A program made the translations under genes and the position numbers. A model generated the notes under the pieces. That model did not search any database. It was given only the letters and a program-made list of their open reading frames with translations, and was not told where the DNA came from. Shown in pieces: positions 14,245 through 58,234 of a DNA stretch of 63,371 nucleotides. Origin of the DNA: an uncultured Nitrospirales bacterium (GTDB lineage: Bacteria; Nitrospirota; Nitrospiria; Nitrospirales; NS-4). The stretch lies in assembly GCA_964542245.1 (NCBI GenBank), contig CAZITU010000004.1:1-63371 (forward strand), given 5' to 3'. Positions within the stretch are counted from its first letter, which is position 1. Every line of letters begins with the position of its first letter.

Positions 14245-14796
14245 GCTCCAGACGACCTCGTGGCCATCGTGCATGAGAGCGACGAGGTGGTCCTGAAATC
14301 GGACGTGGCGCACGGGCCAGAGGCGGGAGGCATAGTCCACGAGCAGATTGTCCTGGTCGAGGACCGCGTGAATGCGGGCCTTCTTCAGGTGGGAGATCCC
14401 GATGCCGACCGCCTTCAGCACGGCCTCTTTCGCCGTCCAGTAGCGGAAGAACGTCTCCCAGCCTCGGCCCGCCAGCGCCCATTCCGATTCGTCGGCGATG
14501 TAGGCATGGAGGCCCTCGTTCCGGGGAACGATCTCCTCGATGTCAATCCCGATGGGAGCCGGCCCGACGACCGCGGCCACGTATCGCGGCTTGTGGGAAA
14601 GCGACCAATAGGTATTGTTGAAAGGCAGCGGGGCATCGCGGTCGCCCTTATTCAAAAAACCCAAGGCGACCCCGCTCGCCTCGCAACTGAGGACCAGCGC
14701 CTCGCGCGCCCGTCGGCTCTGCGCCTGCACGCCCTCCCGCCCGCGTAGCAATTGATCCTCCGTGGAGAGCGACAGGATGATGGGACGAAGTTTCAT
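14188..14796 (-). CDS. 4'-phosphopantetheinyl transferase (Sfp-type)
   Basis: SLSHK, IGIDIEE and FFRYWTAKEAVLKAVGIG motifs. Confidence 0.9.
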   Translation of the reverse strand: MKLRPIILSLSTEDQLLRGREGVQAQSRRAREALVLSCEASGVALGFLNKGDRDAPLPFNNTYWSLSHKPRYVAAVVGPAPIGIDIEEIVPRNEGLHAYIADESEWALAGRGWETFFRYWTAKEAVLKAVGIGISHLKKARIHAVLDQDNLLVDYASRLWPVRHVRFQDHLVALMHDGHEVVWSLLQNPTPCDDSVTVPSEP

Positions 14797-14895: not shown

Positions 14896-14940
14896 CCTGC
14901 TTCGTTGCATCGCACTCCATATGGAACCGGAGGTGATCTG

Positions 14941-15297
14941 ATGGCTGTTTCAGAGCGGCGGGTGCTGCCCCGGTATTATTTTGTGACTCTGGTGGACGTT
15001 TCGGTGCCAGGCTTTAGCGATAGTCTCTGGGGAGCTGTAGCGAATATCAGTCGAACCGGAATCGCCCTTTACATTCGGCAGCAGTTGAAACCCGGAAGCG
15101 CGGTCACGATACGATTCCGGTTCCAGGGCGAGGGTGGGAGGGAGGTCAGCGAGACTATCACTGCCAAGCTTGTGTGGCAGCGCGGCGAGACTGCCGGTTT
15201 GGAATTTGAGCCGCCTATGCTGGCTAATTCACCCGCGTCAAAGAAGGCCCCGCACCTTGCAGACTACTTGAGCAAGAAAGAGGCGACCAAAGGTTGA
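14941..15297 (+). CDS. Stand-alone PilZ domain protein
   Basis: RVLPR and NISRTG motifs, GGAGGTGA RBS. Confidence 0.85.
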   Translation: MAVSERRVLPRYYFVTLVDVSVPGFSDSLWGAVANISRTGIALYIRQQLKPGSAVTIRFRFQGEGGREVSETITAKLVWQRGETAGLEFEPPMLANSPASKKAPHLADYLSKKEATKG

Positions 15298-16619: not shown

Positions 16620-17336
16620 ATGCCGGAGCGCTCCCCCCGAACCTCCACTCTCGATTTTATTGACGCGCTGGAGCGCGAGCTGAAGGCGCTACCCGTCCAC
16701 ACGAATCCCTTCTTTCAGGCCTTTCAACGGGGGATGACCCTCGAGCAAGTGAAGCGCTTCATCAGGCAGTGGTACATCTTCGGCATCCGGTTCCGGAAGA
16801 TTCTGATCGGCCTCCTGTGCAACGTCTCCGACCGGGATGAGGCCATCGGCCTGGAACTGATGCGGGTCCTGTATTCGGAGTACGGCGAAGGGGTCCGGGA
16901 GAACGTCCATGCCGCGCAGATGCTCCGGCTCGTGGACCGGCTGGGGATTGATCGCGGCTGTCTCGCCAAGGAACGGCTGTGCCCCGAAGCCCAGGACTAT
17001 ATTGACACCGTCGGCGAGATTTTCATGCGCGGGGACTTGCCGTCGGCGCTCGGCGCCTCCTTCGGCATCGAGACGACGGCCGGCCTCATGTATCGGTACA
17101 TCTACAGCGGCCTACTGACCTTTCCGGATCTCTCCCTGGAGGACATCCGGTTTTTTGAGACCCATCTGTTCGAGGAGCTGCACCACGGCGATTGGTTGCG
17201 GACCGCCCTGGCCGGCTATGCGGAGTTGGATGAACATCGAGACAAGATCCGAGCGGCCGCGCTCTTGGCCATGGAGAAATGGCACGGCCTCTGGGAGGGG
17301 ATGTGTCGCGTCGTGCTGAGTAGCACGCCGACTTAG
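16620..17336 (+). CDS. Heme-oxygenase-like diiron oxidase (TenA/PqqC/CADD fold)
   Basis: E-x9-H (SEYGEGVRENVH), GIE and H-x3-E-x2-H (HLFEELHH) metal-ligand pattern. Confidence 0.75.
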   Translation: MPERSPRTSTLDFIDALERELKALPVHTNPFFQAFQRGMTLEQVKRFIRQWYIFGIRFRKILIGLLCNVSDRDEAIGLELMRVLYSEYGEGVRENVHAAQMLRLVDRLGIDRGCLAKERLCPEAQDYIDTVGEIFMRGDLPSALGASFGIETTAGLMYRYIYSGLLTFPDLSLEDIRFFETHLFEELHHGDWLRTALAGYAELDEHRDKIRAAALLAMEKWHGLWEGMCRVVLSSTPT

Positions 17337-17351
17337 AGTGTTTGATTCTCG

Positions 17352-17723
17352 TCAGCGTCCCGATTCCTTCTCAATCAAGAAGGCGCTGAGGTAGGGCGCT
17401 GACAGCATCGCCGGGGAACGGCCCTTCAGCGGCGGCTCGAGCTCGAACCCGGCCTTGCCTCCGAGTTGCCAGATGAGCTTAGCGGCGAGTGACTCCGTGA
17501 CTTCACGTCCATCGGCACTATGGAGACAGAAGAGAATGGTCACGCTCAGGTTAGGCCGCAGTTGCTGTCGGAGCGACATCGCCACGCCGGTCCGGCTTAA
17601 GTTGCTGAGGCTTCCCCAGTAGGTCTTCCCGCCGCCGGTCACGCCCGCCCGAACCTGGAGCGTGTACCGCAGGTCCTGGCGTTGTTCACCGGACTTCGAT
17701 TCGTCGGACCTGTAAGGCGCCAT
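17352..17723 (-). CDS. Stand-alone PilZ domain protein, paralogue of 14941-15297
   Basis: RQDLR and NLSRTG motifs, alignable along most of its length with the 14941 protein. Confidence 0.85.
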   Translation of the reverse strand: MAPYRSDESKSGEQRQDLRYTLQVRAGVTGGGKTYWGSLSNLSRTGVAMSLRQQLRPNLSVTILFCLHSADGREVTESLAAKLIWQLGGKAGFELEPPLKGRSPAMLSAPYLSAFLIEKESGR

Positions 17724-17734
17724 AGGGTAATGAG

Positions 17735-18538
17735 CTAATCCGGCCGGAGCGACCGGCGCATGATGTCCTTGTCGAAGTAGTTGACGGACATCCCCGCGTC
17801 GAGGACGATCCCCTGGGCGTTGATCCCGGACGAGCGCGCGCTCAGGAGAAATGCCGCCGCGTTGGCCACTTCCTGCGTCGTCACCCCCTTTTTTCTCAGC
17901 GTGAGGCTTTCCGCGTAGAGGTAGTAGTCGGCGTAGTCGGGGATGCCGGCCGAGGCCGAGGTCTTGAGCAGGCCGGGATTGACCGAATTGAAGCGGACGT
18001 TGGAGACCGAACTGAAGGACTTGGCCAGGAAGCAGATCGTCGAGTCCAGCGCGGCCTTCACGGGACCCATGATGCCGTAGTTCTCAGCCGCCATCTTTGT
18101 GGTGGAGATGGAGACGGCCACGACGGAGGCGTCGGGCGCCAGGATGTTCTTGAAGGCGTTCGCGATCGCGATGAGGGAGTAACAGGAGATGTCTATGGAC
18201 TGAAGAAAGGCCTTCCGGGTCGTCTCGTGGAAGGGTTTGATCCCCCCGTCGTAGTCGAGAAAGGCGATGGAGTGGACCAGCCCGTGGATTGTCGGGTGGG
18301 CCTTCGTGATGTCGCGGGCCACGGCAAGGATTTCCTCGTCCCGAGCGACGTCGCACACGTGGATCTCCCCCTTGGGCAGGAGCTTTGCGACGCTGTCCTT
18401 GCGCTCCTTCGATCGGACCACATAGACGACCATCGCGCCCTCCGCCTCCAGCACCTGGCCGATCTGGTAGGCGACGCTCTTCTTGTTCGCCACGCCGAAG
18501 ACAACGATGGTCTTGCCTTCGAAGCCGAGAAAGCTCAC
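17735..18538 (-). CDS. fabI: Enoyl-ACP reductase
   Basis: [28 protein letters not shown] (YxxMxxxK). Confidence 0.88.
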
Positions 18539-19008
18539 GCCAGGCTCCTCATAGTTGGCTCATTGCTTATGGGGTCTCCAAGGGAAGCCATGGTCACGAC
18601 GAATTCCGTGCGCAACACGTTCCGGCCGTCCACGCTGACCGACCCTTTCATGATCAGCGCCCCCATGATCTCCTCCACGATCTCCGCTTCGATCACGAGC
18701 CTGGCGCCCGGGAAGACGGGCCTCCGGAACCGGGCGTTCTGAATCTTGCTGAGCACCGGCACTCGACCCGGATCCATCGGGCCTCGGCTGAACAGGAGGG
18801 CCGCCCCTGCCTGGAACACGCATTCACAGATCAGGACGCCAGGCATGATGGGCCGGCCGGGGAAATGTCCCGTCAAATAGGGTTCATCCGGACTGAGTGT
18901 CTTGACGGCCTTGATGTGCCGCTCGTCCCGTTCGAGGATTGCGTCAAGGAAAAGGAACGGGGGGCGGTGCGGAATTAGTCTAAGCACCTCGTCCCCGCCA
19001 GCCATCAT
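18535..19008 (-). CDS. fabZ: 3-hydroxyacyl-ACP dehydratase
   Basis: [12 protein letters not shown] and [15 protein letters not shown]. Confidence 0.9.
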
Positions 19009-19009
19009 C

Positions 19010-19762
19010 TTACAGGCCTCCGTCCACGGACAGGACCGACCCCGTAATGTAGCCGGCCTCGCGGGAGGCCAGGAAGAGCACGCAGTACGCGATGTCATCG
19101 GGCGTCCCGAAGCGTTTGAGCGGGATCGAGGCCAGGTAGTCCTTGCGGAGCTTCTCCGGCAGGTCCGCGACGAACTCCGTGTCGATGAAGCCGGGCGACA
19201 CGCAATTCACCGTGATCCCGCGCGAGGCCACTTCCTTCGACAGCGAGCGGGTCATCGCGATCTGGCCGGCCTTCGACGCCGAATAGTTCGCCTGGCCCTC
19301 GAATCCGAAGCGGCTCGCCGGCGATGTAATGGTGATGATGCGGCCGTAACGGTTGCCCATGAACCGATGCACGGCCAGCTTCGACATATAGAAGGTCCCC
19401 GTCAGGTTCACGTCCAGCACCTTCTGCCAGTCATCCGGCTTCATCATCGCCAGGACGGCGTCCTTGCGGATGCCGGAATTGTTGACCAGGACGGTGAAAT
19501 TCTTGTACTCCGCGTCGAGGTCCTTGTAGAACGCCTCGACCTGCGCATAGTCGGCGACGTCGAACTTGCGGACGTGGAGGCCCTGGGCGAGCGGGCCGAG
19601 AGCCGTGCGAAACTCCTCCGTCGCCGTGTCGTTGGCGGCGTAGGTGGCGACGACCGTCGCGCCCGCTTCCAGAAACCGCCTGGAGATGGCCCGGCCGATG
19701 CCGCGAGTGCCTCCCGTGACGACAACCGTTTGATCGCGGAAATCGTACGCGGCGCTACTCAT
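19010..19762 (-). CDS. fabG: 3-oxoacyl-ACP reductase
   Basis: [24 protein letters not shown]. Confidence 0.92.
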
Positions 19763-21281
19763 GCGCAACAATGACCTCCCTCTCCCCCGCCGGGAGAGGG
19801 ACGGGTGAGGGAGATGTAGCGAATCGGTCCAGCAGGTTCTCTTGCGTGTGCATAAACGAAGTGGCCGCCGCATTCTGCCTGAGGTGCTTGTCGATCTCGT
19901 TGGCCACGATGACGCCGTAGTTGATGGCACCCAGCCAGCCGGACATGATGATGCCGACGGAGCCGGCGTGAAAGAGACCGCCGATCTGATTGGGCAGGTT
20001 CTGGCTGATCTTCAAGCCCTCGAACTTCGTGCCGAACGACGCACCGGCCATATGCCGGGTATAGTACTCGAAAGTCCGCGGGGTGGACGCTTCCAGATGA
20101 TCAATCTTAGCGGTGACGCCGGGGAGGTACTTCTCGAGGGTCTCCACCACGCCCCGGATGAGTTTGTCTTTCTCCCGCTTGTACGCCTCCTCCGAGAGGC
20201 TCGCCCAATCTTCGTAGTTGGCATTCGTCGAACAGACAATGGAGTACCGATCCGATCCCGGCCGCGTGTCCGGGTAGTAGAAGGAATAGGTGCGGCTGGT
20301 CACCTCCATGGCGTTCAGGGCATTGGAATCAAACACCGGGTGGGTGGAGGTGAAGAACAAATCCCCGATGTAGGGAATGGACTCGCCCTTGCGGATACCC
20401 ATGTAGACCTGACAACTGCTGCTGTTGAGGCGGACGGCGTTGGCCTCCGTAAGAAAGTCGGGGGCGAAGTGTTCGTCCCCCACCAGTTTGTGGATGGTGG
20501 ACCTGAGATTGGCGTTCGACAGGACGGCCTTCGCATGGATCGTCCGGCCGTTGCAGAGCACGCCGGCCACGCGGCCCCGCTCGACGAGCACTTTTTCCAC
20601 CAGCGCGTGGTGACGCAGGTCCACCTTGTTGGCCTTGAGCGTCGCCTTCATCTTCATGATGAGCTTGTCCGTGCCTCCCTGGAAGGTATAGACGCCCTTG
20701 CTCATGAAGTTGGAGAAGACGATGCCGAACGTGATGGCCGGGTCGTCCAGCGTGGACCCGTTGGCGTAGGCGATGGGCTCCATCAGCAGGCGCCAGACGT
20801 CCGGGCGGCCCGGGAAGTACATCTGGAACAGCTCCCGGGTCGTCATGGCCTGGCCGTCGTAAAAGTTCATGCCGCGGGTGAATTTGAAAAACGCCTCGAC
20901 GGTCTCCTCTGGAATCTTGAAGTCATTGACCAGCTTGTCCGTGAAGTCTTTTTTATCGAAGGTCGTCGTGAAAGAGAATTGGGGGTTGTCGAAGCGAATC
21001 CCCTTGAGTTGGACTATGGACTCGGCAATGTCGGCCGACCAGTACTTGCGGCACGTCTTCACCATGCCGACCGGGAATCCGTGAAGGGAGATGTCAAAGA
21101 TGTGCCCGCCTTTTCGCTTGAACCACGTGGCCATGCCGCCGAAGTTGTAGTGGTGTTCCAGGAGCAGGACCGAATACCCGCAGGTCGCCAATCGGTTGGC
21201 GGCCGTCAGCCCGGCCAGCCCCGAGCCGATGATGATGGCGTCGTACTCGGGCTTGACGTCTCTGAGCCAGTCTTGGGCCAT
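19755..21281 (-). CDS. Phytoene-desaturase-like FAD oxidoreductase (second copy)
   Basis: IIGSGLAGL Rossmann motif, [27 protein letters not shown]-terminus extended through a palindromic repeat. Confidence 0.85.
19778..19811. repeat. REP-like palindrome A (inside CDS 3' end)
   Basis: CCCTCTCCC-ccgcc-GGGAGAGGG-acGGGTGAGGG. Confidence 0.8.
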
Positions 21282-22675
21282 TACGCCTTCTTCAGCACGT
21301 GAAGGTTGGCCATCGAAATGCCGCTCAACATGGAACCCACGATGCCGAGAAACCCTTGGTCGTTGCCGCAAATGAACAGATTGTCCAGGTGCGTCCGCCC
21401 CGTCTTGAGCTTATGCGGCGCCCCGTACACCGCCCCGTTCAGGTGACCGGTCCACTGTTTGATGGTCCGCGGGGTGAAGAAGTCCGTGAACATGACATGG
21501 CCCCGGAAGTCGGGAACGAATTTTAGCACTTCTTGGTGGATCCTCGGAAGCCACTCCCCCTTGGCCTGCACGTACGCCGGCTCGTCAAGGGCAGTCCAGC
21601 GGTCGAAGTTGGCCAGGCAGGTGATCCGGATCATGCTCTGGGGCAGGGGTTCATCGAAGAGGAAGTTGTTGGGACAGCAGATGACCCCCGTCCTGGGATC
21701 CACCAGATCTTTGGGGTTTTCGTAGTGGAACGTCATGCCGGTGTTGAAAAACACGTTCGTGGTGTCATGGCCGAGCGTTTTCATCTCCCGGTCCAAGATG
21801 GAGATGATCTCCACGAACGACAACCGGCCTTCCAAGTGGGCCAGCTTCTCCGGATCACAATCGGTGCAGAGGCGCATCGTTTCGACGTAACCGGCAGACG
21901 AAACGACGGTATCGGCGGTGAGCATCTCCCCGTTGTCGAGTTCCACGGACCGGACCCGCCCTCCCGCCGCGTGCAAGGCCCGGACCCCGCACTTCATCCG
22001 GACATTGCCGCCGACCTCCCGCAGCTTTCTCCGCAGGACCGTAATGATGCGCCGGACCCCTTCCCAGGGCCGGGCCAGGCCCTCGCAGAGGATGCTTTTG
22101 AACATCACCGCGAACTGCCCGAACTCCATATCGTGCTCTTCGGCGTTGCCGTAAATCATCAAGGGGCAGAAGATCATGTCGGCGAGCAAGGGATCGGTCA
22201 GGAAGCGCGACACGACCTGCCGCCCCGACAGGGGTTTCGCATTCAGATCCAACTCATCATAGTCCTTGATGTAGCGCACCAACCGGATAAAATTGTCCTT
22301 CTGGGCGGGGAAGTTCTCAATGACCTCCTGAACGAAGAAGTCGAAGTCGTTGTTGAAGCGAAGCGTCTTTCCCGGGAACCGCACCTCGGACTGATGTTGG
22401 GGGACGAGCCCGAAATCATCCGGCGTCAGCCGTAATTGCCTGTAGAGCTTGGTGAGGGGCGCGCCGCGGGTGCCCGGAGGCACGTAGTTGGTCACGGCGT
22501 GGAGGCCAACGTCGAAATTGTAGCCCCCCAGAGAGTAAAAGGAATTCAGGCCCCCGGCAGTGTAGTGACGCTCTAAGACACAGACCTTTTTGTCGAAGTA
22601 GGCGAGCCGAATCGCCGCCGCCAGACCGGACATGCCGGCGCCGATGATAATGACGTCATAGCGGGTCGAAGGCAT
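21281..22675 (-). CDS. Phytoene-desaturase-like FAD oxidoreductase (first copy)
   Basis: [35 protein letters not shown]. Confidence 0.85.
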
Positions 22676-22750
22676 GGGAATAGATGAGCGTCGGTACGGG
22701 GGAAACGGTATCAGTCCGACGGGGGGGCTGTCAAAGGCTTTAAGGCTGAA

Positions 22751-23002
22751 TCACCGGTCTTTGAGCTTGGGCGCGAGGTAGGCTACGCAACTATCCAGGC
22801 TGGCCAGTTGCCCGTACTCGGCTTCCGGAACTTCTACGTTGTAACGCTTACGCAGCTCCATTACGATATCGAGAAAGTCCATGGAGTCCAGCTCAAGCTG
22901 TTCCCGGAGCGCCACGTCGCTTTTGAGATGGGTCAGGTCCTCATCAGGCGCGATCACGCTGATGATCTGGAGGACGGCATTCTTGATCTGATCGTTCGTC
23001 AT
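22751..23002 (-). CDS. Acyl carrier protein
   Basis: LDSMDFL phosphopantetheine Ser motif, 83 aa, acidic. Confidence 0.95.
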   Translation of the reverse strand: MTNDQIKNAVLQIISVIAPDEDLTHLKSDVALREQLELDSMDFLDIVMELRKRYNVEVPEAEYGQLASLDSCVAYLAPKLKDR

Positions 23003-23058
23003 GTGGAGGCTTCCCCGGATGGCCTGGCGGTCGCAATCGGCCTAAGAAAATACACGAT

Positions 23059-24291
23059 TTACACCTGTTTTACAACCACCACGGAATTGATGCCCAGCAT
23101 TCCCGAAGAATTATTAAGGATATAGTGGATGGAGGGCACCTTCACCGGCGAATTGAGGACCAAATTCGGGAGGACGCATTGGGTGTCCAAGTGGTCCACG
23201 TTGATGGTCGGGTGGACGAAGCCGTCCTCGAAGGCCGGAAGATTCCCGGCCAGTTCCAAGGCTCCCGCCGCACCCATCGCGTGCCCTATGAAGCTTTTCG
23301 TGTTGTTGAAATACGTCCTGGGGCAGTCGGCGAACACGGCTCGCAGCGCCTGGCACTCCTGGATATCACCGAGGTTCGTCGCGGTCGCGTGGGTGCTGAC
23401 GATGCCGATGTCCTGAGGACCGATTCCCGCTTTCTTGAGGGCCGCCTGCATGCACTCGATCTGGCGCTGAGGGTTTGGGAGGACGAAATCCGACGCGTCG
23501 GAGTTCATGTGGGAGCCGACGATCTCCCCATAGACCCTGGCGCCGCGGGCCTCGGCATGGTCCAGACGCTCCAGGACGAACACGCACCCGCCTTCCGAGC
23601 ACACAATGCCGTTCCGGTCACGGTCGAAGGGCCGGCAGGCCTTGGTGGGGTCGGAATGAGTCGCCAGCGCATTCTGGCTGGCGAAGCTGGCGAAGATGCC
23701 GAACGTGTGGATGCTCTCCGAGATCCCCCCGGCCAGGGCCATGTCCACCTCGCCCAGCAGCAGCATCTGGACGCCCTGAATGAGGCCGGCATTGCCGGCC
23801 GCGCAGGCGGCGCCGATGGTGTAATGTGGGCCGGTGATGCCCATGTTCAGCGTGACCTCGCCCGCCGGGGAATTGGCGACCGTCCGGGGATTATGATGGT
23901 GGGACCAGAACTTGGTGTCGTAGTTGAACTGGCTGAGGTTGTAGATCTCGTTTTCGGTCTCCACATTGCCGTGCTCGGTCACGCCCAAGTAGACGCCGAT
24001 CCGGCTCTTATCCAGGGACATGAAGTCGAGCTTCGAGTCGCCCATCGCCTCCTGCGAGCAGTAGATGGCGATGGACCCGGCTCGCGTGCCGCGCCGGACT
24101 TCCTTCTTCAACTGATACTTGAGCGCGTCATAGTTGCAGACGCCTGCGAGCACTTTCCCCATGTAGCGGGTCTCGAACCAGACGACCCCCGAGATCCCTT
24201 TCAGGAGGTTCGCCCGAAACTCGGCGAGGGTATTGCCGTTGGGCGAGGTGAGCCCGATGCCCGTGATGACGATGCGGCGGTGGTTATTCAT
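23059..24291 (-). CDS. fabF: Beta-ketoacyl-ACP synthase (KAS II type)
   Basis: Catalytic Cys-His-His in GAACAAG, HATAT and KSFIGHAMGAAG. AAGGAG RBS. Confidence 0.9.
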   Translation of the reverse strand: MNNHRRIVITGIGLTSPNGNTLAEFRANLLKGISGVVWFETRYMGKVLAGVCNYDALKYQLKKEVRRGTRAGSIAIYCSQEAMGDSKLDFMSLDKSRIGVYLGVTEHGNVETENEIYNLSQFNYDTKFWSHHHNPRTVANSPAGEVTLNMGITGPHYTIGAACAAGNAGLIQGVQMLLLGEVDMALAGGISESIHTFGIFASFASQNALATHSDPTKACRPFDRDRNGIVCSEGGCVFVLERLDHAEARGARVYGEIVGSHMNSDASDFVLPNPQRQIECMQAALKKAGIGPQDIGIVSTHATATNLGDIQECQALRAVFADCPRTYFNNTKSFIGHAMGAAGALELAGNLPAFEDGFVHPTINVDHLDTQCVLPNLVLNSPVKVPSIHYILNNSSGMLGINSVVVVKQV

Positions 24292-24301
24292 CGTCTCCTT
24301 T

Positions 24302-24381
24302 CCCTCGCCCTTTTAGGGAGAGGGTGGGGGTGAGGGTGCCCTCTGAGATTCCCTCGCCCTGGAGGGAGAGGGAGTCAATTT
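24302..24381. repeat. Two REP-like palindromes (B1 24302-24336, B2 24351-24381)
   Basis: CCCTCGCCC-tttta-GGGAGAGGG-tGGGGGTGAGGG and CCCTCGCCC-tgga-GGGAGAGGG-agtcaattt. Confidence 0.8.
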
Positions 24382-24395
24382 AATGCCGCGCGATG

Positions 24396-24647
24396 TCAGG
24401 CGCTGCGCTGCCGCTTGACGACCTGGCGACGCTGATGACGCAGCACCGGCGCAAGGGCGCGCAGTGCCTCGTTTACAGTCGCACCATCCGGGAACACGTC
24501 GAGACCTCCGGGATCCACGACAACGACGTTTGCGCCCTGGGCGTACCTCGCTGCAGTGATCCCGCGAACTGCCCGGCTGAAGTCGTACGAAGGCCGCATC
24601 GTGTCACGATCGGCCGGCTTGCGTCTAGTTCTACCCTTCTTCTTCAT
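24396..24647 (-). CDS. Probable antitoxin paired with BrnT-family toxin
   Basis: MKKKG...MRPSYDFS...VFPDGATVNEALRAL. Start overlaps the reconstructed toxin 3' end. Confidence 0.7.
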   Translation of the reverse strand: MKKKGRTRRKPADRDTMRPSYDFSRAVRGITAARYAQGANVVVVDPGGLDVFPDGATVNEALRALAPVLRHQRRQVVKRQRSA

Positions 24648-24925
24648 AACGTCTCCGTTCCGGACGGCTCCCACAGCGCGCCGAAATTAAACGCGTTCGC
24701 GGCGGCCGTTCAGCAAAGGCTACCACGAGAAGTCGACGACGATTGGATATGCCCAGTGGATATGCCCAGGAGCAGGTACCGCTGTTCCTCCGCTGAATGG
24801 TCGGGGTCGTGCATCAGCAACGAGAGGGGGTCGCCGAATACCGTGGACGCCTCGTCAAACGTGACGCCGTGCTTTCGCGCATTCGACTCAGCCTTCTCCG
24901 CGTCCCATTCAAACTCATAGCCCAA
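24631..24925 (-). pseudogene. brnT: BrnT-family toxin frameshifted by a 13-bp tandem duplication
   Basis: FEWDAEKAESNARKHGVTFDEASTVFGDP N-terminus. TGGATATGCCCAG occurs twice at 24744-24769. Removing one copy restores a 93-aa ORF ending ...LLVVAFAERPPRTRLISAR...RRYEEEG. Confidence 0.85.
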
Positions 24926-24952
24926 GGCACCCTCCCCCAATAAGCATTGTCA

Positions 24953-25969
24953 CTACTCTCTCCCGCCAGGGGAGAGGGAATCAATTTGGATTGCCTTCAA
25001 TGTCCGCTCCAGTCCTTCTTCGGTGCTGATCTTGGGCTCGTACCCCAGCTCGCGGCGCGCCTTCGAAATGTCGAAGTAATGCGCGGTCGCCAACTGGTCC
25101 GCCAGGAACCTGGTCATCCTCGGCTCACCCCGAAACGGCAGCACAGTATAGGCCATTTCCATGGCGGCTCCAACAGCCCTCGCCATTCCGTGCGACAACT
25201 TACGACGAACTCTCGGGATGCCGAGTCTCTCCAGGATCGTATTGATCCAGGTCCAGAGCACGACCGGAGTCCCCTGGGAGATGAAATAGGCCTGGCCGTT
25301 GACCGGGGAGCCTTCTTCTAAGTGGTCGGCCGCCAAGAGGTGCGCATCGGCCGCGTTCTCCACGTACACCACGTCCACCTTGTTCGTGCCATCCCCCACT
25401 TGGATCAACTCCCCTCGCCGTCCCCGCTCGATGATCCGTGGGAACAGGTGCGGGTCCCCAGGACCGAAGATCAAATGCGGCCGGAGGGATACCGTCAGGA
25501 GGCCATCGGCGCCGTTCGCCTGGAGGACAAGCCGTTCCGCCATCGCTTTGGTTGCGGGGTAAGGGCACTCGTATCGGGCGGGATACGGGACGGTCTCATC
25601 AGCATGCTCCAAGCCCCCGCGGGCCGACACAACGCTCGGCGTGCTCGTATAAATCAGCTTCCGCACACCGGCCTTGCGGCATCCGACAAGGACATTTTGC
25701 GTGCCGACGACGTTAGGGCCGAAGAACGCCTGCCACAGGCCCCAGTAGCCCGCCAGCGCTCCCACATGGAAGACCGTCTCCATGCCAAGGCATGACCGCT
25801 CGACCGCCGCCGCATCCTGAAGGTCGGCGCAAACCGCCTCCACGCCCCTCTTCTCCAGGTCAGGATAAGGCCGGCGTCCCAGGACTCGAACCGTGTCTCC
25901 TCGCGCCAGCAGCTTTGCGACGATACGCCGCCCGAGAAAGCCCCCGCCGCCGGTGACCAGCGCTTTCAT
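24953..25969 (-). CDS. oleD: 2-alkyl-3-oxoalkanoate reductase (3-beta-HSD-like SDR)
   Basis: VTGGGGFLG, YTSTPSV, YPATK (YxxxK). Fourth gene of an oleABCD-ordered set. Confidence 0.85.
   Translation of the reverse strand: MKALVTGGGGFLGRRIVAKLLARGDTVRVLGRRPYPDLEKRGVEAVCADLQDAAAVERSCLGMETVFHVGALAGYWGLWQAFFGPNVVGTQNVLVGCRKAGVRKLIYTSTPSVVSARGGLEHADETVPYPARYECPYPATKAMAERLVLQANGADGLLTVSLRPHLIFGPGDPHLFPRIIERGRRGELIQVGDGTNKVDVVYVENAADAHLLAADHLEEGSPVNGQAYFISQGTPVVLWTWINTILERLGIPRVRRKLSHGMARAVGAAMEMAYTVLPFRGEPRMTRFLADQLATAHYFDISKARRELGYEPKISTEEGLERTLKAIQIDSLSPGGRE
24956..24987. repeat. REP-like palindrome C (in oleD 3' end)
   Basis: CTCTCCC-gccag-GGGAGAG then ggaatcaattt, matching B2. Confidence 0.75.
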
Positions 25970-27639
25970 CGCAATCGCCCCGCGGCCCACACCGCAAGCT
26001 TGTCGCGCGAGATTTTCACATTGTGGCGGACATCCACCGGAAGCGAACGGTGGAACAAGACCGAGGCAATCCCCGTAGTTAATGGATTGGCCCTACCCAA
26101 CCGTAATAGTTCATCTTTGTACCGGGCTGTTTCGCTGGGAGTCGCGGGAAATTTTCCCGGGGATGGTTCGATGACAATCACCGGCCGCTGGTTCCCAATG
26201 GGACCGATCCCCACAAGGGCCGAGCGGAACACATCCGGGTGTTGGTTGAAGATTGCCTCACATGGATCAGTGAACAACGTCCCGGAGGCAGTCTGCACCC
26301 GGTCTGCCTTGCGTCCGCAGAACCAGACCCGGTCTTGGCTGTCGAGGTAGCCGACATCTCCCATGCGGTGCCACCAGGTGTCGCCGTCCTTGATCTTCGC
26401 CAGCGCCGTCGCCTGCTCGCGCTTGAAGTACTCCCGCGTGACGACAGGACCCTTGACGACGAGTTCGCCGATTTCGCCATGTGGGAGGACCAGCCGGTCG
26501 TCCCACGATGGAATGGCCTCATCGGTGATGCGGATGACCCGCAAGGTGATGCTCGGAAACATGCGACCGACACAGGTGCCTTTACCGGCGCGGGTCAGCA
26601 CGGCCGTCTCTTTTAGGACTTCGCGCGCCGTGATGGAGGAGACCGGCAGCGCCTCCGTCGCGCCGTAGGGCGTATGGGCGTCGGCGGCCTCTGGCAGAAC
26701 CTCCCGGACCCGTTCCAGCACAGCGGGCGACACGGGCGCCCCCGCCATGAGCACGCGCGTGAGGGAGGGCAAAGTCAGGCTCCGTTCTGCACAGTACCGG
26801 CCGACCCTGTCCCAGATGGCAGGGGAACCGAAAGACTGCGTGGCCTGATACCGCTGGAGATCGGCGACAAACTGTGCCGGGTTCACCTGGGCAGGGCGTG
26901 TAGGATCCATGTCGGGGACGACGACGGTCATGCCCATGACCACGCTGAAGAGGGCGAAGAGCGGAAAGGCCGCCAGGTCCACCTCGCCTTCCCGGATAGC
27001 GTAATAGTCGCGCAGCGCGCGCACCTGGGCGTCGAACATCCCATGCTCGTACACCACGCCCTTGGGAGCGCCCGTGCTGCCGGAGGTGAACAGGACGGCG
27101 GCGGTTTCATCTGAACGCGTGGGCGCGCACGGAAACTCCCGCCAGGTTGATCCGCGAATGTGAGCCAGCGTCGGGCCGCCCCAGAACCAACGACGCCCGA
27201 CCGTGACGACATGTCTCACGCTCTTAAATGAGCCGGGGAATAGTATCCGCGCTGCCTGGGCTTTGGAGACTGCAATGAAGGCTTCGGGCTCTGCCTCTTC
27301 GATGCACGCGAAGAGGTTAGCCTTGCCCATGCCGGGGTCTATCAAGACCGGAACAGCCCCCAATTTGAAGAGCGCAAAGGTCAGGCCGAAAAACTCCAGA
27401 CCTGGCCTGACCATTAAAACAGTTCGGGCGCCCCGTCCGATGCCCAGGCGGCTCAGGCCCCACGCGATCCGGTCGCTTTCCTCGTTAAGCTGCCGAAACG
27501 TGAGTCGAGCATCGCCGCCCTTGGGGAAGATAATCGCAGGCTGGTCTGGACGTCGGCCCGCCATCAGGAGCAGATGGGTCGCGATGTTGAGTAGGCCCGG
27601 TTCGGTTGCGGCGGTGTTCTGGGAGGCTGCGACCGTCAT
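25966..27639 (-). CDS. oleC: Olefin beta-lactone synthetase (ANL adenylating enzyme)
   Basis: FTSGSTGAPKG, PYGATEALPV, WHRMGDVG, PVDVRHNVKI. ATGA overlaps with oleB and oleD. Confidence 0.9.
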   Translation of the reverse strand: MTVAASQNTAATEPGLLNIATHLLLMAGRRPDQPAIIFPKGGDARLTFRQLNEESDRIAWGLSRLGIGRGARTVLMVRPGLEFFGLTFALFKLGAVPVLIDPGMGKANLFACIEEAEPEAFIAVSKAQAARILFPGSFKSVRHVVTVGRRWFWGGPTLAHIRGSTWREFPCAPTRSDETAAVLFTSGSTGAPKGVVYEHGMFDAQVRALRDYYAIREGEVDLAAFPLFALFSVVMGMTVVVPDMDPTRPAQVNPAQFVADLQRYQATQSFGSPAIWDRVGRYCAERSLTLPSLTRVLMAGAPVSPAVLERVREVLPEAADAHTPYGATEALPVSSITAREVLKETAVLTRAGKGTCVGRMFPSITLRVIRITDEAIPSWDDRLVLPHGEIGELVVKGPVVTREYFKREQATALAKIKDGDTWWHRMGDVGYLDSQDRVWFCGRKADRVQTASGTLFTDPCEAIFNQHPDVFRSALVGIGPIGNQRPVIVIEPSPGKFPATPSETARYKDELLRLGRANPLTTGIASVLFHRSLPVDVRHNVKISRDKLAVWAAGRLR

Positions 27640-28517
27640 GGGACCGGATGCTTGGCGAAGAACTCGCGGACCCAGGGAATGATCCGCTCGTGCGCGTCCT
27701 CGACCACGTAATGGCCGGCATCGGGAACCCGTCGGACCTCCGCATTGGGAAATCGCTTCTGCCACGTAGACAGAAACTCCGTCGTGAAACACCAGTCCTG
27801 CTCGCCCCAGATGAGCAGCATCGGGTGGTCCTTGAAGGCCGCCAGTCCCCTTCCGATCTCGTCCACCAGCGTGTAGGTCGGATGGGACGGGCGCATCGGA
27901 ATGTCTTGCACGAAGCGCAGGAGGGCGACACGATTCGCGTAACTGTCGTACGGGGCCCGGTACCCGGATTTCACGGCCGGCGTCATGCGCTCAGGTTTGG
28001 CGCTGGCCATGAAGGGCGCCAGGCCGGCGAAGGCGTTGAATCCGCGGACCGCCACCGCGCCGAAGAGGGGCAGCTTGCAGATGTTGATCCGGAAGGGAAT
28101 CCGGGTTGCCGGAAAAGCCGCGGAGTTGAAGATGATGAAGCGCTTGATTCGATCCGGGTGGCGCACCGCATAGCCCATCCCGATAGGCCCTCCCCAGTCG
28201 TGCAGGAACAGCGTCATGCGGTCGAGCTTGAGCGACTCCAACAGGGCTTCCAGGTTGGTGATGTGCTGTTCCAGGGTATATGGGTACTCCTGGGGCTTGT
28301 CGGAGAGGCCGCAGCCCATGTGATCGGGGGCAATGACCCGTGACGTCTTGCGGAACTCAGCAATCAGGGTGCGGTAGTAGAAAGACCACGTCGGATTACC
28401 GTGGAGCATGACGAGAGGATCGCCGTCCTGCCCCTCGTCCACATAGTGATATCGCAAGCCTGCAAGGCTCAGGAAATGGGACTGAAAGGGGTAGAGGTCC
28501 CGGAAGGAGTCCGCCAT
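27636..28517 (-). CDS. oleB: Beta-lactone decarboxylase (haloalkane-dehalogenase-like hydrolase)
   Basis: HGNPTWSFYY, HDWGG nucleophile, GHYVVEDA. Confidence 0.88.
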   Translation of the reverse strand: MADSFRDLYPFQSHFLSLAGLRYHYVDEGQDGDPLVMLHGNPTWSFYYRTLIAEFRKTSRVIAPDHMGCGLSDKPQEYPYTLEQHITNLEALLESLKLDRMTLFLHDWGGPIGMGYAVRHPDRIKRFIIFNSAAFPATRIPFRINICKLPLFGAVAVRGFNAFAGLAPFMASAKPERMTPAVKSGYRAPYDSYANRVALLRFVQDIPMRPSHPTYTLVDEIGRGLAAFKDHPMLLIWGEQDWCFTTEFLSTWQKRFPNAEVRRVPDAGHYVVEDAHERIIPWVREFFAKHPVP

Positions 28518-28531
28518 CCTCACCGGGCTCC

Positions 28532-29578
28532 CTACCAGGTGACGCCCAGCATCAGGCAGTTCAGGCCGCTGCCGATGCCCAGCAGGGCCAGCCTCTCGGA
28601 ACGCTTGATGTTGCCGGCCTCGATGCTGAGCGCCATCGTGATGGGTAAAGACACCGACCCCATGTTGCCCAGGAACTCGACGGTCGGGTAGTCAATCGCG
28701 GGGTCCAGTTTCAAGGTCTCGAACAGCAGGCGGCGGTGGGCGACGCCTACCTGATGGCAGAAGGTCTTGGTCACGTCCTGATCGCTCCAGACCAGTTCCC
28801 GCTTGAAATCAAGCCAGGTCCGGCCGGCCAGTTCGCATCCCCGGTGCAGGAGCTCCTCCGATTGCGTGGACATTTCCGGCCGGCTGTCGGCATCCAGCCC
28901 CGTATCGGCGCTGCCGCGGCAGAGGTCATTTTGCTCCGAGTCGGTGCGCACGACCCCGCCGGCGAGCGCATGGCCGCTCTTTGAGACGGACGCGTGGGTC
29001 ATAACGATCGCGGCCGCCCCGGAACCGATGGTGAGGGAGGCGAAGGCGTCCTTGAATTTCTTCCGGGTCATGCTGGGGTCTGAGAGGAGTTGTTGAATCG
29101 TCGTTTCGACCAGCGGCTTCCCGTTCTCCCCTGCGACGAGGAGTCCGCGCGTGATCTGTCCCAATTCGATCATATTGCCCAGCGTCACCATGCCGTTCAG
29201 CATGCCGAGACAGGCGTTGGAGATGTCGAAGAGCACGGCTTGCGGCGAGATCTTCAGCCGCTCGTGAACGACGGATGCCGTCGCCGGCTCCAGGAAATCA
29301 CGGGATACGGAACAGTGGAGGATACATTCGATCTCATGTCCGAGGACTCCTGCCTGGTCGAGCGCCTTTCTGCCGGCCAGCGCAGCGGCGTCGCTGGGCC
29401 TCGTGCCCTCGTCCCAGAACCGCCGCTCGCGGATGCCGCTCATCAGCTCCAGCCGCCCGTAAGGAAGCTGGAGTCTGTCATACAGAGGCGCGAGGCGCGC
29501 TTCGATCTCGGCCGAGGTGACGACGTGCTTCGGTAGCTCGTACCCGATGGACTCGATGCAGACCGTGGAATAGCGCAT
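28532..29578 (-). CDS. oleA: Acyl-CoA:acyl-CoA alkyltransferase (head-to-head condensing thiolase)
   Basis: SRDFLEPATAS (catalytic Glu), DISNACLG (Cys), CHQVG (His), GNMGSVS (Asn). Confidence 0.9.
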   Translation of the reverse strand: MRYSTVCIESIGYELPKHVVTSAEIEARLAPLYDRLQLPYGRLELMSGIRERRFWDEGTRPSDAAALAGRKALDQAGVLGHEIECILHCSVSRDFLEPATASVVHERLKISPQAVLFDISNACLGMLNGMVTLGNMIELGQITRGLLVAGENGKPLVETTIQQLLSDPSMTRKKFKDAFASLTIGSGAAAIVMTHASVSKSGHALAGGVVRTDSEQNDLCRGSADTGLDADSRPEMSTQSEELLHRGCELAGRTWLDFKRELVWSDQDVTKTFCHQVGVAHRRLLFETLKLDPAIDYPTVEFLGNMGSVSLPITMALSIEAGNIKRSERLALLGIGSGLNCLMLGVTW

Positions 29579-29637: not shown

Positions 29638-29711
29638 ATTCTAAACAAGCCCGTCCGGGAGGGTCAAGGACGTTCACGCGATTTGCTTTACGGTCGAGGC
29701 GGGCCTAGAAT
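29638..29711. promoter_or_regulatory. Back-to-back sigma70 promoters for the ole/fab operon (-) and the macrodomain gene (+)
   Basis: Minus strand TTGACC-N18-TAGAAT (29667-29638). Plus strand TTGCTT-N17-TAGAAT (29683-29711). Confidence 0.6.
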
Positions 29712-33434: not shown

Positions 33435-33456
33435 ACGCTTGATCTGGGGCTGAGGA

Positions 33457-33506
33457 CCCCCTCTCCCTCACCCTCCCCCTCGAGGGGGGAGGGATGGGTG
33501 GGGGTG
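33457..33506. repeat. REP-like palindrome D (intergenic in RND operon)
   Basis: ccctctccctca-CCCTCCCCC-tcgag-GGGGGAGGG-atgggtggggg. Confidence 0.8.
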
Positions 33507-33522
33507 AACCATTGCGTATTCA

Positions 33523-37742: not shown

Positions 37743-37779
37743 CGTCCTCGTTGTCGAAAGGCGGGGTAGCTACGGGCGG

Positions 37780-37808
37780 ATTGTAGCCCGACCCGCGCCT
37801 GAAAGCAA
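37780..37808 (-). promoter_or_regulatory. sigma70 promoter of DGC1
   Basis: TTGCTT-N17-TACAAT. Confidence 0.6.
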
Positions 37809-37823
37809 ACGAGATAAACGCCT

Positions 37824-39319: not shown

Positions 39320-39349
39320 ATTATAGAGAGCGCTCTGGAAGAGTGTCAA
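39320..39349 (-). promoter_or_regulatory. sigma70 promoter of tRNA-Gly
   Basis: TTGACA-N18-TATAAT. The -35 overlaps the stop codon of the upstream gene. Confidence 0.75.
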
Positions 39350-58124: not shown

Positions 58125-58234
58125 GAGAAGCGCGAGACTAGCACACCGATCACAAGCGGTCAACCAACGCCTCAGGCCTTCTCCCACATTGTCGCCCTGA
58201 CATGCCCCATGCTAGGCTTACGCGCTATACGCGT

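Follow-up and report, generated by a model that had tools for sequence, protein, structure and literature searches.

What would a bacterium make from the four enzymes of head-to-head olefin synthesis, a fatty acid synthase (FAS) set of type II and two flavoproteins resembling carotenoid desaturases, when all are encoded on one strand in a single gene run? This question is raised by a cluster in the 63,371-nucleotide stretch of DNA analysed here (the window), whose source organism is a soil or groundwater Nitrospirales bacterium.

Gene content and layout of the locus

Gene families were assigned with Pfam and NCBIfam models, and the starts of oleC (27639), oleD (25969), the gene for CrtI-like flavoprotein B (21281), fabG (19762) and fabZ (19008) were revised by homologue alignment. 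The order on the minus strand between 17735 and 29578 is OleA-OleB-OleC-OleD-BrnT/BrnA-FabF-ACP-CrtI-like A-CrtI-like B-FabG-FabZ-FabI, and all 12 genes named in the original prediction lie where it had placed them. The cluster and its nearest neighbours comprise the following features:

29638–29667, minus strand: sigma-70-like promoter match, TTGACC-18-TAGAAT, 10/12 consensus positions
28532–29578, minus strand: oleA, head-to-head condensing thiolase, 348 aa (PRK09258, 434 bits, cut-off 285)
27636–28523, minus strand: oleB, haloalkane-dehalogenase-like alpha/beta hydrolase, 295 aa (Pfam/NCBIfam)
25966–27639, minus strand: oleC, AMP-dependent beta-lactone synthetase homologue, 557 aa from the ATG at 27639 (NCBIfam)
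24953–25969, minus strand: oleD, 3-beta-HSD/SDR-type 2-alkyl-3-oxoalkanoate reductase homologue, 338 aa (NF042422, 379 bits, below the cut-off of 580; Pfam 3Beta_HSD)
24631–24940, minus strand: brnT toxin gene, frameshifted (BrnT_toxin, E 7e-15)
24396–24647, minus strand: brnA-like antitoxin ORF, identified from its position, where it overlaps the last part of the BrnT C-terminal frame
23059–24291, minus strand: fabF-like elongating ketosynthase, 410 aa (TIGR03150, 305 bits, below the cut-off of 494)
22751–23002, minus strand: dedicated ACP, 83 aa, DSM serine motif (Pfam PP-binding; about 35 bits against ACP models with cut-offs of about 70)
21281–22675, minus strand: CrtI/CrtD-fold flavoprotein A, 464 aa (amine-oxidase/CrtI superfamily)
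19755–21281, minus strand: CrtI/CrtD-fold flavoprotein B, 508 aa (amine-oxidase/CrtI superfamily)
19010–19762, minus strand: fabG, ketoacyl-ACP reductase, 250 aa (TIGR01830, 275 bits)
18535–19008, minus strand: fabZ, hydroxyacyl-ACP dehydratase, 157 aa (NF000582, 118.5 bits, above the cut-off of 113)
17735–18538, minus strand: fabI, enoyl-ACP reductase, 267 aa (adh_short_C2)
17352–17723, minus strand: PilZ-domain protein, 11 nt after fabI
14188–14796, minus strand: 4'-phosphopantetheinyl transferase (PPTase; ACPS superfamily), 3 kb downstream of fabI

Packing is tight, and measurement of the junctions agrees with the earlier statement that most of them overlap or abut. The oleB gene starts after a gap of 8 nt from oleA, oleB/oleC and oleC/oleD each meet in an ATGA overlap, the two flavoprotein genes (CrtA and CrtB) share 1 nt at TAATG, flavoprotein B overlaps fabG by 8 nt, fabZ follows fabG after 1 nt, and fabZ and fabI overlap at GTGA. 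The C-terminus of flavoprotein B runs over a hairpin element at 19778–19800. Wider gaps occur only around the toxin-antitoxin (TA) pair (12, 62 and 104 nt), between fabF and the ACP gene (56 nt) and between the latter and flavoprotein A (75 nt). Since the 104-nt gap between the ole and fab halves holds two hairpins in this genome and adjoins a decayed TA pair, co-transcription of the halves is only putative. The single upstream sigma-70 promoter proposed at first is present as a site about 60 nt 5' of the oleA ATG; it is nevertheless a consensus match and only a putative promoter, because a scan of the whole 13.9 kb found 4 such sites against 2.2 expected.

The TA pair noted earlier in the slot between the two halves is a BrnT/BrnA pair, and its toxin gene is frameshifted. 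The N-terminal part of brnT (24710–24940) and the C-terminal part (24631–24738) occupy different frames, and a three-frame translation places the C-terminal 'RRLLVVAF...LISAR...RYEEEG' out of frame with the N-terminal part; the brnA-like ORF had no match in a Pfam search. Downstream, the PilZ gene is kept at the same position in a sister locus (L006, 77% identity) and is possibly co-transcribed with fabI. The PPTase probably activates the dedicated ACP; six sister Nitrospirales loci also have one, 3–4 kb downstream of fabI, and in Chloroflexota loci it follows fabI immediately. The ORFs of the window that were scanned, the largest of which are GltB and AcrB homologues, included neither a Pfa-sized ORF nor a phytoene synthase or prenyltransferase, just as first reported. 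A CrtC-family lipocalin gene is located at 58202–59371, 28 kb from the cluster.

The catalytic residues had been described as intact, and the motifs of OleA, FabF, FabZ, FabI and FabG are indeed conserved, while those of ACP, OleB and OleC are present. The best solved relatives of OleA are Xanthomonas OleA structures (3ROW, 3FK5; E about 1e-67, against 1e-17 for FabH). All 52 of 52 cassette OleA proteins share its Cys123, His275, Asn305 and Glu97, and the Xanthomonas counterparts of Cys123 and Glu97 are C143 and E117; this OleA-specific glutamate identifies the cassette thiolases as OleA-type enzymes and rules them out as FabH primers. As read from the translations, OleB carries the Asp-nucleophile motif HDWGG and OleC the motif TSGSTGAPKG. 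In Opitutus sp. GAS368, the gene that follows oleA encodes a protein 43% identical to OleB. OleC exceeds the PRK09274 cut-off (720 bits against 478) and scores 611 and 563 bits with the olefin beta-lactone synthetase models NF045786 and NF045785, in both cases below the equivalog cut-off.

Within the FAS half, FabF keeps its Cys, His, His and Lys and has the gating loop GMLG in place of GFGG, as do all 67 of 67 cassette FabFs; the N-Y-x3-K of FabG, the His and Glu of FabZ and the Y-x6-K of FabI (54/54) are conserved. Given this loop, and FabF and ACP scores well under the NCBIfam equivalog cut-offs for housekeeping forms, the earlier label of a private FAS is reasonable. The operon lacks FabD and FabH, so malonyl-ACP and priming would come from elsewhere in the genome. 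The two flavoproteins are about 24% identical to each other, and an AlphaFold model of flavoprotein A (pLDDT 76, pTM 0.81) finds its best fold matches in CrtD (4REP, TM 0.70) and then CrtI (4DGK).

Distribution of the cassette

A species-genome scan for relatives of flavoprotein A gave 239 stretches, and the best 80 loci were analysed. Among these best 80 of 239, flavoprotein B is paired with A in 71 and was not detected in the other 9, OleABCD with the full FAS/flavoprotein set recurs in 7 of 7 full-context Nitrospirales loci, and, in Chloroflexota/Dehalococcoidia, the largest carrier group, 20 of 21 full-context loci have an OleA-type thiolase with the cassette. The same 20 Chloroflexota loci combine OleA, the cassette and a PPTase, and OleB, OleC and OleD occur within 10 kb in none of the 21, so the cassette can do without the enzymes that finish the olefin. 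Relatives of flavoprotein A are 54–87% identical across five phyla, and in about 70 loci from five phyla both flavoprotein genes lie between those for ACP and FabG/FabZ.

The guess that similar arrangements exist in Planctomycetes or Verrucomicrobia was correct, in the form of partial fusions. Planctomycetota loci (L074, L077–L079) read OleC-OleD-FabF-ACP-CrtA-CrtB-FabZ-FabI, and cultured Opitutaceae (Opitutus sp. GAS368, Oleiharenicola lentus) read FabF-ACP-CrtA-CrtB-FabZ-FabI-OleA-OleB. The FAS/flavoprotein module adjoins oleA in five bacterial phyla, and the divergence gradient between phyla is alike for all cluster genes, which suggests that the cluster evolves as a unit. Recurrence of the ole and fab halves together across genomes indicates conserved synteny and not chance. 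The join proposed at the outset is thus upheld in Nitrospirales, but only its OleA component is constant. The conserved unit is OleA with the divergent type II FAS and two flavoproteins, OleBCD is a lineage-specific finishing module, and the fab plus ole operon extends that core in particular lineages.

Candidate pathway and alternative products

With gene identities, intact motifs, tight packing and the cross-phylum linkage of OleA to the FAS/flavoprotein cassette directly supported, we consider it somewhat more probable than an even chance that a single operon in this region directs the synthesis of a head-to-head hydrocarbon with a long and probably polyunsaturated chain. The mechanism originally proposed, in which OleA condenses unsaturated acyl chains supplied by the FAS and flavoenzymes, is a plausible fit to this linkage. 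The divergent type II set (FabF with its modified gating loop, ACP, FabG, FabZ, FabI and the nearby PPTase) would build the acyl chain, and the two CrtI/CrtD-fold flavoproteins would preserve or install C=C bonds, possibly conjugated ones, in the acyl thioester as it grows. In the preferred version they would be flavin-dependent double-bond isomerases or dehydrogenases, one turning trans-2 into cis-3 and the other turning trans-2 into cis-2, which are the roles of FabA-like domains in Pfa synthases. OleA may then take the acyl-ACP directly from the carrier and would join two such chains by Claisen condensation, after which OleD would reduce the 3-keto group, OleC would close the beta-lactone and OleB would decarboxylate it to the olefin. 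The cassette is compact and amenable to testing, a candidate for a still unproven pathway to polyunsaturated lipids that needs no oxygen.

The Chloroflexota loci, with OleA in 20 of 21 and OleBCD in none, favour a different reading that is possible but on balance unlikely: the OleA/FAS/flavoprotein module would make another lipid, for instance a ketone of long chain length or a 2-alkyl-3-keto or -hydroxy acid, free or as its ester or amide, with OleBCD added in Nitrospirales. OleA alone yields ketones in heterologous hosts, and in the place of OleBCD many Chloroflexota loci contain a free-standing Condensation-domain protein, DUF362, an SRPBCC cyclase-like protein, FabD and a conserved 138-aa protein without a Pfam match. 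The flavoproteins need not polyunsaturate here; they could introduce one cis bond as an oxygen-independent substitute for FabA/FabX, isomerise or saturate, and the Nitrospirales product would be an ordinary mono- to tri-unsaturated olefin. Consistent with this, the top NCBIfam match of both flavoproteins is a carotenoid isomerase model, not a desaturase, and FabI, whose complete reduction would not in itself be looked for in a polyene maker, is constant in Nitrospirales and Chloroflexota loci. However, OleBCD could sit elsewhere in the Chloroflexota genomes, beyond the 10 kb covered, the ole-cassette fusions occur in differing gene orders in three phyla, which argues for a functional link over one chance fusion, and two conserved flavoproteins exceed the need of a single double bond.

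It is improbable that the pathway ends in a stable beta-lactone or other OleC-derived natural product (compare lipstatin and nocardiolactone) whose unusual side chain the FAS and flavoproteins would supply. OleA-FabF pairs are duplicated in loci L020, L021, L023, L029 and L028, recalling the two OleA homologues of lipstatin, LstA and LstB, but OleB is the decarboxylase that distinguishes olefin clusters from lactone clusters, and in the window it is intact, with its Asp nucleophile motif, and tightly coupled between oleA and oleC. Some beta-lactone natural products are likewise made by homologues of OleA, OleC and OleD (PMC7064751).

There is still less probability that the flavoproteins are true carotenoid or isoprenoid enzymes placed incidentally beside fab and ole genes. 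Their CrtD/CrtI fold, weak matches to carotenoid isomerase and desaturase models and the CrtC-family gene 28 kb away are in keeping with such a role, but they score only 66–105 bits where the family cut-offs are 238–587, their position between ACP and FabG/FabZ is shared across phyla, and no phytoene synthase or prenyltransferase turned up in the ORFs of the window that were scanned. Enzymes with a similar gene context in anammox bacteria, moreover, do not complement crtI and made no lycopene (PMC4790861). A cyclised or radical-SAM-modified, ladderane-type lipid for which the flavoproteins would prepare the precursor is hardly credible: the architecture resembles kuste3603-3608 (ACP, FabZ, two FabF, phytoene-desaturase-like, radical SAM; PMC4790861, PMC13459092), and in sister locus L017 oleD and fabF flank a B12-binding radical SAM gene, which in L065 and L066 adjoins the flavoprotein A gene, but the window cluster and its flanks have none, the decayed TA pair fills the slot, only 1/7 Nitrospirales and 3/21 Chloroflexota full-context loci carry one, and the window FabZ and ACP, compared with anammox-specific and canonical forms, are no closer to the anammox ones.

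Relation to known systems

The hydrocarbon pathway favoured here has a close counterpart in the OleABCD systems of Xanthomonas campestris, Shewanella oneidensis and Micrococcus luteus, with which the window shares the canonical A-B-C-D order and an OleA, closest among solved proteins to that of Xanthomonas, bearing the Cys/His/Asn triad and the OleA-specific glutamate. Described acyl donors come from housekeeping FAS or a Pfa synthase, whereas the window has an in-operon FAS and two flavoproteins, and its OleC and OleD fall under NCBIfam equivalog cut-offs. In Shewanella, Photobacterium and Geobacter, a Pfa synthase is genetically linked to ole and the product is C31:9 hentriacontanonaene (PMC6463001, PMC3098273, PMC4882568). 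Both arrangements link to ole genes a secondary lipid synthase that gives OleA, or in the window would give it, a special acyl chain; in the window, where no multidomain PKS-like Pfa was found among the ORFs scanned, discrete type II enzymes and CrtI-fold flavoproteins would replace the FabA-like DH domains. In the literature searched, no paper describing the fusion of ole genes with the FAS/flavoprotein cassette was found.

The idea that flavoproteins and FASII produce polyunsaturation has a partial forerunner. For Desulfotalea psychrophila, which makes C31:8 and C31:9 hydrocarbons without a PKS-type PUFA pathway, Rattray et al. (2009) suggested that polyunsaturated chains arise from FASII clusters containing phytoene-dehydrogenase-like genes, and a role in oxygen-independent polyunsaturation has been proposed for such Kuenenia/Desulfotalea-type clusters (PMC2649909). 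In the literature searched, no test of this proposal, which is close to the mechanism considered here, was found for the Desulfotalea and anammox clusters. Compared by cluster content, Kuenenia stuttgartiensis (kuste3603-3608, kuste3335-3352) and D. psychrophila (DP1860, DP2405, DP2406) likewise co-cluster FabF, ACP, FabZ and an amine-oxidase/CrtI-like flavoprotein; they differ in having radical SAM genes, of which the window cluster has none, and the papers give no oleABCD link for them.

Relative to CrtI, CrtD and CRTISO, the window flavoproteins retain the FAD Rossmann motif and overall fold (A against CrtD 4REP, as above), but they are only 16–20% identical to these enzymes, score far under the family cut-offs and have ACP and Fab enzymes as constant neighbours in place of adjacent carotenoid pathway genes. 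FabX of Helicobacter pylori, whose fold is unrelated to the CrtI fold, acts as a single enzyme where the window has two flavoproteins. As a flavin/[4Fe-4S] acyl-ACP dehydrogenase/isomerase, it nevertheless provides a precedent for a flavoenzyme working on acyl-ACP (PMC8626469), and the likeness, one of functional analogy and not of membership, lies in a flavoenzyme that forms a cis double bond within type II FAS without O2-dependent desaturation.

Gene organisation of the cluster

The 63,371-base window has a GC content of about 61%, and its proteins share 80-91% identity with proteins of uncultured Nitrospirales found in soil and groundwater metagenomes. On its minus strand lies a continuous run of genes in which oleABCD is followed by a fab half encoding a FabF-like ketosynthase, an 83-aa ACP, two amine-oxidase/CrtI-superfamily flavoproteins (CrtA and CrtB), FabG, FabZ and FabI. 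The features discussed in this section and the next are listed below.

Features in and around the cluster
14905-15297 (plus), 17352-17723 (minus), 36597-38969 (minus), 39346-44384 (minus): c-di-GMP and cyclic-nucleotide signalling genes
16620-17336 (plus): heme-oxygenase-like diiron protein
17735-29578 (minus): ole, fab and flavoprotein gene series
19778-19800, 24302-24324, 24351-24372, about 24955-24979, 33465-33493: short palindromes
24396-24647: BrnA-like ORF, intact
24631-24940 (minus): BrnT toxin gene, frameshifted
30282-35381 (minus): TetR regulator, membrane-fusion protein and AcrB-type RND pump
58202-59371 (plus): CrtC-family lipocalin gene

Once gene starts had been corrected from homologue alignments, the junctions were measured as overlaps (ATGA, GTGA, TAATG, 8 nt) or gaps of 1-12 nt, except around an inserted toxin-antitoxin pair and at FabF-ACP-CrtA. 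The original prediction of a single minus-strand cluster of ole, fab and flavoprotein genes is borne out in its gene identities, its junctions and the presence of the catalytic residues checked. A promoter-like TTGACC-18-TAGAAT, recognised by consensus match only, lies about 60 nt upstream of oleA, and co-transcription is assumed across the hairpin-bearing gap of 104 nt before fabF. A PilZ gene follows fabI, and a phosphopantetheinyl transferase (PPTase) gene lies 3 kb downstream of the cluster. OleABCD and an elongating FAS with its private ACP and PPTase form one operon-like unit.

The toxin-antitoxin pair predicted between oleD and fabF was found as BrnT/BrnA, with only the antitoxin ORF intact: the C-terminal half of the toxin ('RRLLVVAF...LISAR...RYEEEG') is read in another frame than the N-terminal half, the Pfam BrnT_toxin match is limited to the latter, and an intact toxin frame is absent. 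The same slot in sister Nitrospirales is either empty or occupied by a B12-binding radical SAM gene. GC-rich short palindromes (CCCTCNCCC-loop-GGGAGAGGG), which look like REP- or MITE-like elements, occur where genes meet within and close to the operon; the toxin-antitoxin insertion is flanked by them, and two extend into oleD and crtB at their 3' ends. The C-terminus of CrtB is longer than in its relatives (508 aa versus about 470-484).

The surroundings are rich in signalling genes, including two PilZ genes, a tandem pair of GGDEF genes and two CHASE2 sensors, one of them a sigma-54 activator and the other a cyclase; the PilZ gene directly after fabI is kept in the homologous locus L006. Just past it lies the diiron protein gene, with Pfam Haem_oxygenas_2/TENA matches and the PDB relatives BesC and CADD, which was considered as a syntenic member and rejected, its position not being conserved in relatives. 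On the strand of the ole genes, directly upstream of their promoter, stand the regulator, membrane-fusion and pump genes, which are not conserved beside the cluster in sister genomes.

Ole enzymes, dedicated synthase and flavoproteins

OleA scores 434 bits against PRK09258 (cut-off 285) and matches the crystallised Xanthomonas OleA with an E-value of about 1e-67, versus 1e-17 for the best FabH. Alignment to 3FK5 and 3ROW places Cys123 at Xanthomonas C143 and Glu97 at E117. The Cys/His/Asn triad and the OleA-specific glutamate are invariant in all 52 cassette thiolases (52/52), which are therefore OleA-type condensing enzymes, not FabH primers. OleB, encoded adjacent to oleA and oleC, is a haloalkane-dehalogenase-like alpha/beta hydrolase with HDWGG, which holds the Asp nucleophile, and a C-terminal GH motif; in the NCBIfam search it was matched by no curated OleB model. 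Both proteins carry the features expected of OleABCD pathway members. The far best specific matches of OleC are NF045786 (611 bits, cut-off 900) and NF045785 (563 bits, cut-off 850), and it exceeds the PRK09274 cut-off (720 bits, cut-off 478), while OleD, with its TGGGGFLG and YxxxK motifs, matches NF042422 best by a wide margin (379 bits, cut-off 580). OleC and OleD are thus below the curated equivalog scores and right in context, and the Ole part is, judged by sequence, a member of the known pathway.

The fab half diverges from housekeeping proteins, since neither FabF (305 bits against TIGR03150, cut-off 494) nor the ACP (34 bits against TIGR00517, cut-off 70) reaches its equivalog cut-off. 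The gating loop beside the FabF active site reads GMLG in place of GFGG in 67 of 67 cassette FabFs (loci L006-L085), a change that may suit the enzyme to an unusual acyl chain. Since the catalytic Cys, His, His and Lys are retained, the enzyme set should function as a FAS, though not as the canonical one. Neither FabD nor FabH was found among the window ORFs scanned, so malonyl-ACP and priming would depend on the cell; a FabD gene follows the PPTase gene in 10 Chloroflexota loci. A housekeeping fabZ, sought beside lpxC at the window end as proof of a second FAS, was not there, and the term 'private' is therefore justified by divergence from the models rather than by a second copy. Neither the FabZ nor the ACP of the window is closer to anammox-type entries, which we take to be 7QV0/8AY* and 7AUF, than to canonical proteins.

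CrtA (464 aa) and CrtB (508 aa) are about 24% identical to each other and are remote members of the CrtI superfamily. Neither reaches the cut-off of the CrtI phytoene desaturase model TIGR02734 (66.5 and 77 bits, cut-off 238), and their best match is a carotenoid isomerase model (84 and 105 bits, cut-off 587). Profile searches of solved structures returned CrtD (4REP) and CrtI (4DGK) alone, and weakly; for CrtB, this profile sequence search supplies the tie to CrtI/CrtD. The AlphaFold model of CrtA (pLDDT 76, pTM 0.81) matches 4REP best (TM 0.70), then 4DGK, then generic amine oxidases, and CrtA is assigned a CrtI-type fold with an N-terminal FAD Rossmann motif. Identity between phyla is 54-63% for CrtA and 60-69% for CrtB, unusually high for an accessory enzyme. 

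No phytoene synthase or prenyltransferase was found among the window ORFs scanned, and no Pfa-type megasynthase either, as no ORF exceeds 1254 aa and the two largest encode glutamate synthase and AcrB. The sole carotenoid-flavoured gene of the window, 28 kb from the cluster, encodes a CrtC N-terminal lipocalin domain with Lipocalin_9 (carotenoid 1,2-hydratase/AttH-like family).

Distribution of the cassette across phyla

CrtA homologues were aligned and the GTDB collection, at one genome per species, was scanned, yielding 239 stretches that encode a CrtA relative. The best 80 of these 239 loci were taken with 10 kb flanks, the window proteins were placed on them by tblastn, and all ORFs were clustered. 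In this set, the conserved neighbours of the cassette are fab, ACP and oleA genes.

Gene context by lineage among the best 80 of 239 loci (L numbers denote individual homologous loci)
Nitrospirales, 7 full-context loci: OleA, B, C, D, FabF, ACP, CrtA, CrtB, FabG, FabZ and FabI in the window's order in 7/7; PPTase a few kb downstream in 5/7
Chloroflexota/Dehalococcoidia, 21 full-context loci: FabF-ACP-CrtA-CrtB-FabG-FabZ-FabI-PPTase in 21/21; OleA-type gene first in 20/21; OleB, C, D within 10 kb in 0/21
Planctomycetota/Phycisphaerae, context variable: OleC-OleD-FabF-ACP-CrtA-CrtB-FabZ-FabI(-PPTase) in L074 and L077-L079; OleA on the opposite strand in L074 and L085
Opitutaceae, 3 loci (one MAG and the cultured Opitutus sp. 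GAS368 and Oleiharenicola lentus): FabF-ACP-CrtA-CrtB-FabZ-FabI-OleA-OleB

OleA is found together with the FAS/flavoprotein cassette in several phyla, and because ole genes and cassette are joined in orders that differ from phylum to phylum, a functional link is favoured over one inherited accident. OleA alone is the constant ole partner. The conserved unit is accordingly redefined as OleA, the FAS and the two flavoproteins, a set found widely among uncultured Dehalococcoidia, a group with little-known lipids.

Several further features accompany these loci. A duplicated front end, OleA-FabF-ACP-OleA-FabF, is present in L020, L021, L023 and L029 (Dehalococcoidia) and L028 (Planctomycetota), and is reminiscent of the paired OleA homologues of lipstatin-type pathways. 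A 138-aa protein with no Pfam match is encoded directly upstream of OleA in 31 Chloroflexota loci; a Condensation-domain protein, a DUF362 protein and an SRPBCC protein surround the OleBCD-less cassette in 14-18, and a 1412-aa BcrAD/DUF2229/HGD-D activase-like protein occurs in 9 (examples of such accessory genes are L030 6708-7133 and 15721-18944, L064 2436-6674 and L027 15430-16371). A 3-beta-HSD gene beside the Opitutus cassette was considered as OleD and rejected, being divergent, GalE-like and 25% identical.

In three MAGs labelled Desulfobacterota (L065, L066, L049), CrtA nests among Dehalococcoidia copies at 71-76% identity, a pattern that points to recent horizontal transfer or to misbinning. 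When the Thermodesulfobacteriota homologue (L066) served as the search seed, Dehalococcoidia-type relatives alone came up, at 71-76% identity, and no Desulfotalea.

A candidate route to polyunsaturated chains and its relation to known systems

To our knowledge, the Pfa synthase is the sole proven source of polyunsaturated precursors for C31:9-type olefins. Sukovich et al. in 2010 reportedly found C31:9 in Opitutaceae TAV2 and Planctomyces maris. Shulse and Allen make no mention of Opitutaceae, and P. maris is not among the carriers of Pfa-like clusters listed in the available part of their paper (PMC3098273). C31:9 and other head-to-head olefins are known from several groups of bacteria, Planctomycetes and Desulfotalea among them (PMC7534041, PMC2649909). 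Desulfotalea psychrophila produces the hydrocarbons C31:8 and C31:9, is without a PKS-type PUFA pathway and carries FASII clusters with phytoene-dehydrogenase-like genes, and Rattray et al. (2009) proposed type II FAS with such enzymes as an anaerobic PUFA route (PMC2649909). The same idea underlies one model of ladderane biosynthesis; anammox homologues do not replace CrtI (PMC4790861), and in a 2026 review the step is still no more than a proposal (PMC13459092). No experimental test of the 2009 route was found in the searchable literature (PMC2649909, PMC4790861, PMC13459092). Nor did that literature yield a paper describing the fusion of ole genes with the cassette.

On its own ACP the cassette would assemble a special acyl chain whose unsaturation the two flavoproteins would determine; two chains would then be condensed head to head by OleA, and OleD, OleC and OleB would finish the product to an internal olefin, following the established Ole mechanism. 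An all-cis methylene-interrupted chain, for instance the 16:4 chain from which C31:9 derives, needs two trans-2-enoyl isomerisations, to cis-3 and to cis-2, which FabA-like domains carry out in Pfa synthases. Both C=C isomerisation and allylic dehydrogenation are known activities of the CrtI-type fold. Our preferred hypothesis is that the two flavoproteins would perform these two isomerisations; the FabZ of the cassette is an ordinary dehydratase, and the conserved flavoproteins of this fold number exactly two. FabX of Helicobacter offers a precedent for a flavoenzyme acting so on acyl-ACP (PMC8626469), and the Desulfotalea findings of Rattray et al. lend the scheme published support (PMC2649909).

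Tentatively, the system could represent a third way to polyunsaturated acyl chains, independent of oxygen and unlike both desaturase/elongase systems and Pfa PKS-type synthases, in which a discrete type II FAS and two CrtI-fold flavoenzymes acting on enoyl- or acyl-ACP let cis bonds survive elongation and OleA is the dedicated outlet. If true, this would account for hydrocarbons of the C31:9 type in bacteria that lack pfa and identify the long-sought 'phytoene-dehydrogenase-like' step of the Desulfotalea and anammox lipid clusters.

The main rival holds that the product of the OleA/FAS/flavoprotein core is not a polyolefin, with OleBCD a late add-on and the flavoproteins possibly setting a single double bond; it draws on the Chloroflexota cassettes, which lack OleBCD within 10 kb and often have Condensation-domain, DUF362 and SRPBCC proteins instead. 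That the pathway stops at a beta-lactone is unlikely because OleB is intact, and the invariant fab context makes a carotenoid role of the flavoproteins unlikely too. Ladderane-like radical SAM chemistry, to which a sister genome lends some weight by carrying a B12-radical SAM gene in the exact slot of the decayed toxin-antitoxin pair (L017), does not apply to the window, whose cluster has no such gene.

Whether polyolefin or another product is made, the module is real, widespread and uncharacterised. It offers a minimal gene set on 12 kb, adjoining the enzymes that would consume its product, and together with the cultured Opitutaceae carriers pointed out here this makes the question directly testable, turning a long-standing hypothesis into a 12-gene experiment.

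Compared with known systems, and judged by the ORFs scanned, the window departs from Pfa-type PUFA synthases in missing their large multidomain KS-AT-ACPn-KR and DH proteins, from housekeeping type II FAS in its set without FabD and FabH, and from the CrtI family in having no associated phytoene synthase or prenyltransferase gene. The radical SAM gene of the Desulfotalea and anammox clusters is missing from the window cluster and present in L017 and a few other loci, and their ACP and FabZ specialisations are not shared by the window cassette. The flavoproteins are possible counterparts of kuste3607, kuste3336, DP2405 and DP2406. What joins the window to the Desulfotalea and anammox clusters is the supply module, which is alike in architecture and proposed function.
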